64,000 bases of DNA from an uncultured delta proteobacterium (lineage in GTDB: Bacteria; Myxococcota; UBA727; VGSZ01): contig CAVZJB010000012.1 in NCBI GenBank assembly GCA_963775425.1, positions 288,001-352,000 of the forward strand. Reading direction: 5' to 3'. Below the pieces are notes generated by a model. It saw only the letters and a program-made list of their open reading frames with translations. It ran no database searches and had not been told where the DNA came from. Below, one piece after another: positions 31,665 through 37,596 of the stretch (positions are counted from its first letter, which is position 1; each line of letters begins with the position of its first letter). Made by a program: the position numbers and the translations under genes.

Positions 31665-32440
31665 GACGAGGGGGAGGCGTCGCGGGGGAGCGCGCCGCGC
31701 TCGGCGAGCGGGGCGCGCCGGCCGCCCAGCGCGCGCCGCAGTTGCTTCCAGAAGAAGCGCGGGCCGAGCGCGAAGTCGATCTCGGCGAAGCACACGAGCT
31801 CGTCGCCGTGGCGCCAGCCGGGGTTCTTGTCCGCGAAGAACGCGACGTCGGGCTCCGCGAGCGTCTCTTTGTCGAGCGGCGCCACGGCGTGCTTCACGCG
31901 GTCGTGCGGCACGCAGTAGCGCAGCACCTCGGCGCCCGCGTCGTAGTCGTCGCCCCACCACGCGCGCGCGACGCGGTCGCGCAGCGCGCGCAGCTCCGGC
32001 GCCGGCGTCGCGCCTCGGCGAGGAAACGCCGAGGGGAAGTTGTTGGTGAGGATGAGGTACGTCTTGTAGCCCTTGGACAGGAGCAGCCAGTACAGCGGCG
32101 TGAGGGGGCTTCGCAGCTTGTGGCGCACGGAGAACGCGAGGAAGCCGCGGTGGAGCGCCTTGGTGCCCCAGCAGTCGGGGTGGATGACGGTGTCTCCGGA
32201 GAACAGGATGTCCACCGGCTTTCCCGAGAGCGTCTCGCGCGCGACGCGGATGGTGGAGAAGCCCTGCACCGCGCGGTGCTCGTCGACGAGCAAGATGACG
32301 TGCTGCTTTTCGGCGAGGTCGGCGGCGAAGCGCGCGGGATCGACGTTGTCGTAGCAGAGCTGCATGAGCGCGAGCATGCGCGCGCGCGTGTGGTCGTCGA
32401 GCGCGGCGCGGGCCACGATCTTATGGCGCAGCCGGCTCAC
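31661..32440 (-). CDS. GNAT-like protein coupled to the GH3 gene
   Basis: GTGA overlap; FAADLAEKQHVILL, QGFST, FSGDTVIHPDCWG (GNAT motif A-like), YWLLLSKGYKTY. Confidence 0.7.
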   Translation of the reverse strand: MSRLRHKIVARAALDDHTRARMLALMQLCYDNVDPARFAADLAEKQHVILLVDEHRAVQGFSTIRVARETLSGKPVDILFSGDTVIHPDCWGTKALHRGFLAFSVRHKLRSPLTPLYWLLLSKGYKTYLILTNNFPSAFPRRGATPAPELRALRDRVARAWWGDDYDAGAEVLRYCVPHDRVKHAVAPLDKETLAEPDVAFFADKNPGWRHGDELVCFAEIDFALGPRFFWKQLRRALGGRRAPLAERGALPRDASPSS

Positions 32441-33069
32441 GTGAGCACCTCGGCGGCGTAGCGCGCCACGAACGCGCCCACCGCGCCCGTGACAGCGGCG
32501 TTGCACAGCGCGGTGGCGCGGTTGATGGCGGCGAAGCGCGGGTCGCCCTCGGGGGCGAACCACACACCGTGCGCGCCGGTGGTGCGGCCGCCGACGGCGC
32601 CGAAGAAGCGCCAGGCGTGGTGGATCTCGACGGCGAGCGAGCCGACGACGGCGGCGCACAGCCCGAGCGCCCAGCGGTCGATGCCCGGCGACGCCACGGC
32701 CTCGGCGACATCGTCGGCACGCCACAGGAGCGCGCCGCCGACGAGGGCGATGGAGAGCGCGCAGTGGGCGATGCCGTACGGCGGGCGCCAGCTTCGCGTC
32801 ACATAGAGCATGAACATCTCGACGGCGCCGCGGAGCCACATGAAAGCGGCGAACGCGCCGAGCGCGGTCCGGAAGCAGGGCGCGACGACGTCGTCGAGGG
32901 CGAGGGCGGGGCAGACGAGGAACCAGAACCACACGGCGAAGCCGAGCCAGTACGCCTTGGGCGACGACATCGCGCCGCCCATGGCTCCGCGACCCTGGCG
33001 TCTGCGGAACATGGCCGCGAGCGCGGCGACGGCGACCGCGCCGCCGACGATGACGACGAGGGACGTCAT
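32437..33069 (-). CDS. Hypothetical integral membrane protein
   Basis: About five hydrophobic segments; stop overlaps the next start; MLYVTRSWRPPYGIAH. Confidence 0.7.
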   Translation of the reverse strand: MTSLVVIVGGAVAVAALAAMFRRRQGRGAMGGAMSSPKAYWLGFAVWFWFLVCPALALDDVVAPCFRTALGAFAAFMWLRGAVEMFMLYVTRSWRPPYGIAHCALSIALVGGALLWRADDVAEAVASPGIDRWALGLCAAVVGSLAVEIHHAWRFFGAVGGRTTGAHGVWFAPEGDPRFAAINRATALCNAAVTGAVGAFVARYAAEVLT

Positions 33070-33164
33070 CGCGCTCGACCCCCGTCAGCGCGCTCGACCC
33101 TCGTCATCGCGCGCAGCCTCGCCCTCCGCCGGAGGTCGCGCGCGCTCATTGGACAACCTCTACG

Positions 33165-33390
33165 CCGCGGTGACGGGTTGAGCGATCTTCCCGGCGCCGT
33201 CTCCCGGGCTTCGTCGGGGAGGGCCGCGCTCGCTTGCCGGTGAACGGCCCCTGTGAGACCCGCCCCCTCGACGAAGCCGGGAGCCTTGAAGCGGCTACAG
33301 GACGTTGCGCCCGACGATGTTTGCTGACGACGACGGAGCGCCTGTCAATGAGCAACCGATCAAGGCTCCCAGCCCGGGGGACGGTACCGC
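33165..33390 (+). ncRNA. IS110 bridge RNA (ends approximate)
   Basis: Two stem-enclosed loops. Guides CGCGCTC (33225-31) and CCTGTGAG (33250-57) match the target flanks; ACAGGACGT (33297-305) and CAATGAG (33346-52) match the element ends. Confidence 0.85.
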
Positions 33391-33406
33391 AACAAGGAGG
33401 TCCGTC

Positions 33407-34612
33407 GTGTCGTACTTTGCAGGTTTGGATTGGGCGGCGAACGAACACGCCGTCTGCGTCATCGACGACAAGGGCAGCGTCGTGCTCCGCCTCGTCGTCA
33501 AGCACACCGAGGAGGGTCTCACCGGCGCTGTGGCGAAGCTCCGTAGGTTCACTGAGGAAGCGCCGCTGCGCATCGCCATCGAGCGGCCGACGGGGCTCGT
33601 CGTCGACACGCTGGTCGATGCGGGATTCCACGTCGTGCCGATTCACCCGAACGTCGTGAAAGCGACGCGTCCGCGCTACTCGAGCGTTGGCGCCAAGAGC
33701 GACCCCGGCGACAGCTACCTGCTGGCAGACTTGCTGCGCACCGATGGGCATCGCTTCAAGACGCTCACGCCGCTCGGAGACGAGACGAAGGCGCTGCGTG
33801 CCCTCGTTCGCGCACGCGGCGACCTCGTTGCCGAGCGGGTTGCACTGGCGAACCAGCTGCGCGCGCTCGTTGAGAGCTTCTGGGCCGGCGCCGCGTGCAT
33901 CTTCCGCGACATCGACTCGCCCATCGCGCTGGCGTTCCTCGGGAGGTACCCGACACCGCAGCACGCCGAGCGCGTCGGCGAGAAGCGGCTCGAAGCGTTC
34001 CTGGCGCGCAACCACTACTCCGGTCGCAGGGACGTCGCCGAGCTCCTGGGCCGCTTGCGAGGTGCGCCCAGCGGCAAGTGCGGCGAGATGGAGGCCGAGG
34101 CGAAGGGGGAAGCCGTGCAGCACCTCGTCGCGGTCCTCGACATCGTCGTCGCACGTCTCAAGAAGCTCAACGCCGCCGTCGAACACGCCGTCGAGGCGCA
34201 CCCCGACGGGCACATCGTGATGTCGTTTCCGCGCAGCGGACGCATCAACGCCGCGCAGATTCTCAGCGAGCTCGGCGACGAGCGCGCGCGCTTCGACAGC
34301 CACGAGCACCTCGAGGCCGAGGCTGGCGTGTGCCCCGTAACGTTCGCGTCCGGCAAGCACGTCGGCGTCGCGTTCCGGTGGGCGTGCAACAAGCACCTGC
34401 GCTCCGCCGTGACCCTCTGGGCCGACAACTCGCGACACAGCTCGCCATGGGCCGCCGCCCTCTACGACGCTGCCCGCGCTCGCGGCCACGACCACCCGCA
34501 TGCGACCCGCATCCTCGCTCGTGCGTGGCTCCGGGTGCTGTACGCGTGCTGGAAAGCCCGCGTCCCGTACGACCCGGCCCTTCACGGCCGCGCCGCCGCG
34601 CTCGCCGCCTGA
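33407..34612 (+). CDS. IS110 family transposase/recombinase
   Basis: AAGGAGG RBS then GTG; AGLDW, IAIE, KSDPGD (DEDD); AGVCPVTFASGK serine motif; RILARAWLRVLY. Confidence 0.95.
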   Translation: MSYFAGLDWAANEHAVCVIDDKGSVVLRLVVKHTEEGLTGAVAKLRRFTEEAPLRIAIERPTGLVVDTLVDAGFHVVPIHPNVVKATRPRYSSVGAKSDPGDSYLLADLLRTDGHRFKTLTPLGDETKALRALVRARGDLVAERVALANQLRALVESFWAGAACIFRDIDSPIALAFLGRYPTPQHAERVGEKRLEAFLARNHYSGRRDVAELLGRLRGAPSGKCGEMEAEAKGEAVQHLVAVLDIVVARLKKLNAAVEHAVEAHPDGHIVMSFPRSGRINAAQILSELGDERARFDSHEHLEAEAGVCPVTFASGKHVGVAFRWACNKHLRSAVTLWADNSRHSSPWAAALYDAARARGHDHPHATRILARAWLRVLYACWKARVPYDPALHGRAAALAA

Positions 34613-34635
34613 GATGGCGTGACGCAGCGCGGTGG

Positions 34636-34641
34636 TTGACA
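34636..34641 (+). promoter_or_regulatory. -35 box in the IS110 right end that forms a promoter on circularisation
   Basis: Perfect TTGACA; across the predicted circle junction it reads TTGACA-N17-CAACCT, pointing into the bridge RNA. Confidence 0.7.
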
Positions 34642-34650
34642 CAGGACGTC

Positions 34651-37596
<2,946 letters not shown>

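Follow-up and report, generated by a model that had tools for sequence, protein, structure and literature searches.

An initial annotation of the window analysed here, a stretch of 64,000 nt (contig C12:288001-352000) from an assembly of 8.26 Mb with 71.9% G+C, had recognized the bridge RNA of an IS110 element just upstream of a recombinase gene, with four guides that match this very insertion. The locus raises the question of whether the left end of this element is really written as such an RNA, whether its two loops read the target site and the element's ends, and whether the element has moved in this genome. As developed below, positions 33145-34649 very probably correspond to an insertion sequence of the IS110 group that is intact and operates in the manner of IS621. 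All the strings reported in the initial annotation were found at the positions it gave, and some of the roles assigned to them had to be changed. The features of the locus are collected in Table 1.

Table 1. Positions, in the window, of the element, its RNA and its sites.
Feature	Position	Strand	Remarks
Left target (t1-t7) of this insertion, GCGCGCG	33138..33144	+	Identical to the left target guide at 6/7 positions
IS110-group element	33145..34649	+	1,505 bp counting one CT core; boundaries from identical copies and diverging flanks
Left CT core copy	33145..33146	+	CT(CA) borders each copy on either side
Putative -10 half, AACCTC (or CAACCT, 33154-59)	33155..33160	+	Whole promoter only in the circular form
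5' hairpin before both guide arms (predicted)	33174..33193	+	Minimum-free-energy fold only
Bridge RNA core	33196..33378	+	Model R1, 141.4 bits, E 1.2e-29
Closing stem P0, 5' half	33203..33209	+	Pairs with 33372-78 in the fold
Target-loop basal stem, 5' half	33210..33223	+	Pairs with 33262-33275; helix 1, 7/7 pairs compensatory
Left target guide GCGCUCG and core-binding CU	33226..33234	+	Family register; 8/9 match this flank
Target-loop inner hairpin GCCG/CGGC (33236-39, 33245-48)	33236..33248	+	Helix 2, 98.7% paired
Right target guide CUGUGAG	33251..33257	+	Pairs with top-strand CTCACAG (34650-56), 7/7
Target-loop handshake AC	33258..33259	+	Complementary to GT, the last two right-end bases
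Donor-loop basal stem, 5' half	33279..33289	+	Pairs with 33360-70; helix 3, 10/11 pairs compensatory
Donor-arm inner CGG/CCG helix	33292-94 with 33356-58	+	After the basal stem
Left donor guide ACAGGACGU and U facing core C	33297..33306	+	Identical to right end 34641-49
Donor-loop inner hairpin (GCGC 33307-10 with GCGC 33338-41)	33307..33341	+	Helix 4, 100% paired
Right donor guide CAAUGAG	33346..33352	+	Pairs with top-strand CTCATTG (33145-51), 7/7
Donor-loop handshake CA	33353..33354	+	C33353 pairs with target G7; A33354 unpaired with target C6
Recombinase gene	33407..34612	+	GTG start, AAGGAGG at 33394-400, 401 aa
TTGACA, putative -35 half	34636..34641	+	88-100% conserved in 67 distinct right ends
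Right CT core copy and right target CACAG	34650..34656	+	CTCACAG here in all four full copies

The element, its recombinase and its copies

The span of the element is shared with three other copies, L002, L003 and L004, whose flanks diverge outside positions 33145-34649. Between CTCA at 33145-48 and CTCA at 34650-53 lie a non-coding left end of 260 nt, the recombinase gene and a right end of 37 nt. We found no terminal inverted repeats, the in-register identity from end to end being 3/20 and the longest inverted match (6 nt) not being terminal. A left end far longer than the right end, together with the lack of terminal inverted repeats, is also the organization of the IS110 group. The element sits directly at the end of a gene for an FG-GAP/ASPIC-UnbV repeat protein of 981 aa (34651-37596, - strand); the TGA stop of this gene is the complement of 34651-53, within the core and right target, and the stop codon therefore survives the insertion. 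The other neighbouring gene (32437-33069, - strand) encodes a membrane-like protein of 210 aa for which no Pfam family was found. An empty site could not be recovered from relatives, which have diverged too far to show one: in a comparison of the right flank with 31 genomes, the only matches (73-77%) started more than 320 nt inside the neighbouring gene.

The product of the gene carries the domains PF01548 (1.5e-32, residues 5-158) and PF02371 (2.3e-14, residues 269-353), and it matches NF033542, "IS110 family RNA-guided transposase", with 183.1 bits for a cut-off of 140. Its only two relatives of solved structure are IS621 (8wt6, E 3.8e-7) and the ISCro4 transposase (E 9.7e-7). Residues D99, D102 and S315 lie opposite D104, D107 and S243 of IS621 chain 8wt6_A, which would be the published D102, D105 and S241 if a tag shifts the numbering by 2 residues; neither the first D nor the E falls within the alignment. 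Residue E59 does not vary in 8 relatives, and D8, in the sequence GLDWA, was assigned by eye. The reading frame is uninterrupted, and the catalytic residues covered by the alignment are preserved. Judged from its sequence, the protein is a DEDD/Ser recombinase of the IS110 family.

Searching the genome for the two ends gave five left ends and four right ends, that is, four full copies and a shortened one. Over 1,509 nt, the three other full copies show 0, 0 and 1 mismatches with the copy studied here. The flanks of the copies agree at the junctions and are unrelated beyond about 11 bp. All five left junctions read (C/T)G-CTCA, the preceding bases being GCGCGCG (this copy), TGCCGCG, GTCGTCG, CGGGCCG and TCGGCTG, and all four right junctions read CTCA-CAG, the bases after CTCA being CAGG, CAGC, CAGG and CAGC. 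The element is inserted site-specifically around a short core at both junctions, and the expectation of the initial annotation that other copies would lie in like sites was borne out, since all five copies are at nnnnn(C/T)G-CT-CACAG-like sites.

The shortened copy, L005 (G000:C18:86455-87382), shows no difference over 928 nt and then stops at the point that corresponds to position 34076. It keeps the left end, the whole bridge RNA and the first 223 codons, which makes it an orphan bridge RNA gene. Beyond the break the sequence is unrelated and contains a pair of nearly identical stretches, each about 25 nt long (GGGCAGGTCACGCCCCGGCACAGGG-like). No Pfam family was found for a 478-aa open reading frame located beside it on the other strand.

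A conserved RNA scaffold in the left end

The initial annotation had proposed that the bridge RNA region, a stretch of 258 nt (33149-33406), be checked by folding and by covariance analysis. It folds at -141.6 kcal/mol and is far more stable than shuffled sequences (z = -6.3), none of 200 shuffles being as good. For the covariance analysis we used relatives of the element from genomes (10, with 45-67% protein identity) and from metagenomes (80, with 52-68%). The genome relatives include members of Methylomirabilota/Rokubacteria, Gemmatimonadales, Roseomonas and Actinomycetota. Eight relatives served to build a covariance model, R1, with four helices; the pairs that RNAalifold placed between the two strands of the donor loop, which are the guide strands, were dropped before the model was built. 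Model R1 matches 90 of the 95 sources, always on the strand of the gene and just upstream of it, and the five sources that it does not match have less than 115 nt of upstream sequence.

In 82 distinct rows, 93.7% of the helix cells are paired, compared with 34-47% when the helices are slid, and 21/26 pairs show compensatory changes, a result equalled by 0/500 shuffles; the alignment (A4) was fitted to the model structure, so that these pairing counts lean in favour of the model. The scaffold is nevertheless secure, because of the slid controls and of the number of compensatory pairs, and the two-arm structure put forward in the initial annotation is conserved across homologues. The left end would encode a bridge RNA, some 180 nt long (33196-33378) and made of two arms, each with an internal loop. 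A search of positions 32800-35000 against Rfam with E values up to 1 returned nothing relevant, the sole match being a snoRNA model (E 0.52) that falls within the gene, but on the other strand. Among the relatives L012-L101, the spacing between the left junction and the first position of the RNA model has a bimodal distribution, with values of about 45-73 or about 119-165 nt, so that some of them have about 90 additional nt in front of the RNA.

The perfect 11-bp stem of the donor arm (33279-89 with 33360-70) was recovered just as the initial annotation had drawn it. The stem that it had proposed for the target loop, 33201-16 with 33269-83, held in part: it pairs with one bulged G, but its outer 7 pairs run into the donor-loop stem and are poorly supported in the family. 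Indeed, for these outer pairs (33201-07 with 33277-83) 65.8% of the cells are paired compared with 63.6% in shuffles, which is weaker than for the closing stem P0 with which they compete, and they may represent an alternative conformer. For P0, 68% of the cells are paired in the family compared with 32-46% when slid, with 70 compensatory cells compared with 39.8 in shuffled alignments, and its family support appears moderate.

Guides, core and handshake

In IS621, as described in passages of PMC11208160, the first loop binds the target and the second the donor, the 5' strand of each loop matching the top strand and the 3' strand being complementary to it. Here too, the first loop would read the target site and the second the joined ends of the element itself. 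To compare guides and flanks in the relatives, the left junctions were placed by the right donor guide and the right junctions by the left donor guide. The test of the target guides is therefore independent, because the strands of the target loop were not used in placing the junctions.

The 5' strand of the first loop has 12 nt in nearly all members, namely CC, seven variable bases, CT and one base. With the seven variable bases taken as the left target guide (offset 0), the identity to the left flank was 0.595 compared with 0.392 in the null, and none of 1,000 permutations reached it (60 distinct non-own loci). This excess was observed only at offset 0 when offsets -5 to +4 were scanned; position by position, the signal extends from t3 to t8, is strongest at t3-t7 and is weak at t1-t2. 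The initial annotation had chosen CGCGCTC at 33225-31, which recurs in the flank at 33141-47, as the left guide. In that register, which corresponds to offset +3, the identity was 0.221 compared with 0.201 (75/1,000 permutations), and we take CGCGCTC for an additional match that arose by coincidence where G and C alternate. That register also gives a 9-nt match, GCCGCGCTC, to the flank of L002; we regard it as a coincidence in GC repeats, because it makes use of the CC that is conserved as part of the scaffold.

The right target guide shows Watson-Crick complementarity of 0.83-0.97 to the right flank at t8-t14 (70 loci). At t11-t14 the null ranges from 0.41 to 0.78 and 0/1,000 permutations were as high; at t12-t14 it is 0.41-0.50. 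Across the relatives, no covariation was detected at t15 or t16 (0.30 compared with 0.30 at t15). The guide had been read as 33250-57 (CCTGTGAG, reverse complement of 34650-57), of which 33251-57 stands and the eighth pair does not. This pair, C33250/G34657, is coincidental: t15 does not covary, and the copies in this genome have G, C, G and C there. Poor matches, 1-3 of 7, were seen at 4/59 right junctions (L018, L075, L089 and L099), all of them placed with one mismatch, and these junctions look mis-placed. With the corrected register of the left guide, the CT core and a right guide of 7 nt, the ideal target now predicted is GCGCTCG-CT-CACAG, in place of the initial CGCG-CTCA-CAGG. The first loop matches its target, with 8/9 and 7/7 matches here and covariation in the family at the correct offset only; the guides track the flanks in the relatives, which is the outcome that the initial annotation had anticipated.

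How much do the matches of this single sequence tell? In a loose test of the longest match against 5,000 dinucleotide shuffles, the match of the left target guide was equalled by chance in 38% of them and that of the right target guide in 15%, whereas the figures for the left and right donor guides were 1.3% and 4.2%; all four matches together occurred in 0/5,000. The left-target 7-mer alone is not beyond chance in DNA of 72% G+C. For this guide the test in fact singled out a different 7-mer, GGAGGTC at 33396-33402, which overlaps the ribosome-binding site and is identical to the left flank at 33132-38; this chance 7-mer illustrates the weakness of lone 7-mer matches in G+C-rich DNA. It is the comparative evidence that is decisive, rather than the single-sequence matches.

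The same figures bear on a reading of the left end as a mere leader or regulatory element, involved in translation control or serving as an antisense target, in which the guide matches would be by-products of G+C-rich repetitive sequence and conserved ends. The rates of 38% and 15% for the two target guides agree with it, as does the fact that the RNA model stops 16 nt before the ribosome-binding site, so that the RNA and the mRNA may share one transcript; regulation of expression by the non-coding ends of IS110 elements had in fact been proposed earlier (cited in PMC11208160). A regulatory leader would, however, have no cause to covary with DNA outside the element, and the variable strands of the loop track host flanks that are unrelated between loci: the right guide reaches 0.93 at t12-t13 compared with 0.41-0.5, and the signal of the left guide exists at one offset only. 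We regard a plain leader as very improbable, and a bridge RNA as the appropriate description of this left end.

The donor loop was studied with a permutation control, in which the guides of different members were swapped. The own left donor 8-mer was found at the right end (1,000-1,600 nt downstream) in 63/75 relatives, compared with a mean of 0.35 for swapped guides, and the own right donor 7-mer was found exactly within 160 nt upstream of the RNA in 53/68 relatives, compared with a mean of 0.8; the ends of the relatives having been located with these donor guides, it is this control that carries the donor pairing. In the element itself, both donor strings of the initial annotation proved exact: ACAGGACGT at 33297-305 is identical to the right end at 34641-49 (9/9), and CAATGAG at 33346-52 is the reverse complement of CTCATTG at 33145-51 (7/7). 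Within the set, the 8-mer of the left donor guide, ACAGGACG, belongs to this element alone, and it agrees with the element's right end. On the left side, CTCATTG/CAAUGAG here corresponds to CTCACTG/CAGUGAG in most relatives, a compensatory change. The second loop matches the donor, both here and in the relatives, whose ends carry their own guides. The second core base is left unpaired by the left donor guide.

We then considered the extent of the core. CTCA, or GTCA in a small clade, is present at the left end of 58/58 distinct relatives and is complementary to the UGAG of both loops. The initial annotation had taken the four bases CTCA as the core. In 7 distinct relatives, the right junction has G, T or C as its fourth base, to which the right target guide conforms (7/7), but the donor keeps CTCA. 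The fourth base differs in these cases between target and donor, and the obligatory shared core is therefore at most CTC. By homology, the core would be the dinucleotide CT, and the CA that follows it is merely common to the right target and the right donor of this element.

CTCA borders both ends of every copy in this genome, as would also a 4-bp target-site duplication produced by staggered cutting of the DDE type. A duplication copied from the host would nevertheless vary from site to site, which is not what the constant CTCA/GTCA of the 58 left ends, complementary to both loops, indicates; nor does it agree with the 7 relatives in which the right junction has a fourth base other than A and the left junction still reads CTCA, or with a protein that is a DEDD/Ser recombinase rather than a DDE transposase. 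Such a duplication is hardly credible, and we retain a shared core.

In the small clade mentioned above (L018, L019, L021, L097, L098 and L099), GT replaces CT as the first junction bases, the left end reading GTCAyTGG. Both right-hand guides shift in step, with UGAC for UGAG, and the left target guide reads GGU; on these grounds, the clade is read as a natural switch of core that the loops have followed. One of its members, L019 (junctions at about 1240 and 2733), has GCCA at the left junction, when its right donor guide predicts GTCA and its right target guide and flank have GTTA. This may be an aberrant or decayed insertion.

The initial annotation had noted that both right-hand guides could be extended in a way reminiscent of handshake pairing. 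Handshake guides are described, in excerpts of PMC11208158, as the pair of bases that comes next on the 3' side of each right-hand guide; once exchange has taken place, their partners are positions 6-7 of the other DNA, and pairing with the self DNA blocks the exchange. The extended guides GAGAC and GAGC do fit the recombined junctions. The AC of the target loop faces GT in 63/70 relatives, as the IS621 rules demand, and is unable here to pair with the target CG. For the donor loop, the first handshake base agrees with t7 at 0.98 compared with 0.89 in the null (0/1,000 permutations), target position 7 is a G in all five copies, and the CA is unable to pair with the donor GT; no signal was observed for the second base of this loop against the target across the relatives (0.47 compared with 0.45). 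After exchange of the top strands, the bases that follow each 3' guide (AC in one case, C in the other) could thus pair with the other DNA partner. Taken together, the domains of the recombinase, the copies at like sites, the covarying RNA scaffold and the covariation of guides and flanks uphold the IS110 bridge-recombinase architecture that had been recognized initially.

Mobility, site choice and relation to known systems

By analogy with IS621, the 401-aa DEDD/Ser recombinase and the bridge RNA would recombine a circular form of the element with the target at the CT that both contain. The chemistry, circular intermediate, rebuilt promoter and production of the RNA are all carried over from IS621 and would apply here in the same way. 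The two ends contain sequences suited to such a promoter. The TTGA part of TTGACA lies outside the match of the left donor guide and yet is conserved. At the left end, positions 11-16 read nACCyT in 58 distinct left ends (A12 93%, C13 97%, C14 100%), often as TACCCT, and the spacing from TTGACA to nACCyT across the junction is 18 nt (17 nt with CAACCT). We infer that TTGACA and nACCyT would be brought together into a promoter at the circle junction; a promoter rebuilt on circularisation is the published model, as given in passages of PMC11208158 and PMC11208160. The proposed junction -10 of this particular element (AACCTC or CAACCT) is weak. A scan of the integrated copy for sigma-70-type promoters gave 0 sites, and the single terminator-like hairpin detected, at 33303-16, does not exceed chance, 0.8 being expected. 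Among the sequencing runs listed for the stretch, four DNA metagenome runs share 5-8% of the sampled words, and none is an RNA run. A 2026 paper (PMC13626964) reports that IS621, too, is weakly expressed in its integrated form.

The lack of a promoter in the integrated copy and the truncation of one copy could be taken to mean that this is a genuine bridge-RNA element that is immobile now in this genome, its copies being left from past activity or from segmental duplication, and many suitable sites are indeed still empty: the genome contains 212 unoccupied CTCACAG and 44 unoccupied CGCTCACAG sites. Four full copies with 0-1 differences over 1,509 nt, the flanks of which are unrelated beyond about 11 bp, point instead to recent transposition rather than to a large duplication, and the intact reading frame and aligned catalytic residues also speak against immobility, which we hold to be rather unlikely. 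Near-identical dispersed copies imply recent movement, and the element has probably been active recently. The description of the element as "probably active" in the initial annotation is in keeping with four near-identical copies at like sites, its mobility being putative.

The ideal 14-mer target, GCGCTCGCTCACAG, is absent from the genome of the element. One unoccupied site fits 13/14 of the positions predicted by the guides (CGCTCGCTCACAG) and two fit 12, and these are the likeliest next landing sites. The sites already occupied match the left target guide at 6, 3, 4, 3 and 3 of 7 positions, when 75 of the 212 unoccupied CTCACAG sites reach at least 3 matches. Compared with this background, the left half appears to contribute weakly, the core and the right half being always matched. 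It is conceivable, if somewhat doubtful, that site choice in the natural host operates mainly through the right half of the target, the core and right target (CT-CACAG) being matched in full in all five insertions and only t6-t7 being consistent on the left. Recombination of this "half-match" type is described for IS621 in vitro in part of bioRxiv 10.64898/2026.08.31.748434. If this were true, site choice here would be an in-genome case of half-match, and the bridge RNA of L005 could supply a guide in trans.

The element resembles IS621 (PMC11208160, PMC11208158, structures 8wt6-8wt9) in its two-domain DEDD/Ser recombinase, in the placement of the RNA upstream of the gene, within a long left end, in the two looped arms that come in the order target then donor, in the strand rule and in the CT core read by the guides. 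The handshake bases directly 3' of the right-hand guides and the TTGACA of the right end, placed for a putative junction promoter, are further common points. The proteins are distant, with E 3.8e-7 and an alignment limited to residues 65-134 and 248-398, and that of the element has 401 aa compared with a chain of 328 residues. In contrast to IS621, the host is G+C-rich, the natural targets are without demonstrated identity to a repeat element, the core-facing bases of the donor loop are 2 nt nearer the inner hairpin than in the target loop, and CA follows the core in the donor and in most targets. In the bridge RNA studied here, the 5' and 3' ends are linked by a closing stem.

With the IS1111 group, the element shares the recombinase family and the RNA-guided logic. 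As described in PMC11208160, the members of that group differ by a bridge or seek RNA located in a long right end and by subterminal inverted repeats of 7-17 bp, whereas the present element has a left end of 260 nt, a right end of 37 nt and no such repeats. The relatives L012-L101 (45-68% protein identity) have in common with it the RNA scaffold, the right end GGTTGACACAGGnnGT and the left end CTCAyTGG..nACCyT, and differ in their guide bases and in their targets.

The element raises no new question, because its architecture and mechanism follow the 2024 work on IS621 and because NF033542 already names its protein an RNA-guided transposase. From a genome of 72% G+C, it adds a bridge-recombinase element that is annotated in full, occurs in several copies and seems to have moved recently, with all its guides, core and handshake bases assigned, and it is accompanied by a set of about 80 relatives with covarying guides and sites. 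For the engineering of bridge recombinases, it is another natural orthologue. For the annotation of this genome, the 260-nt "intergenic" stretch is to be regarded as an RNA gene, with likely hot spots of rearrangement at the five copies.
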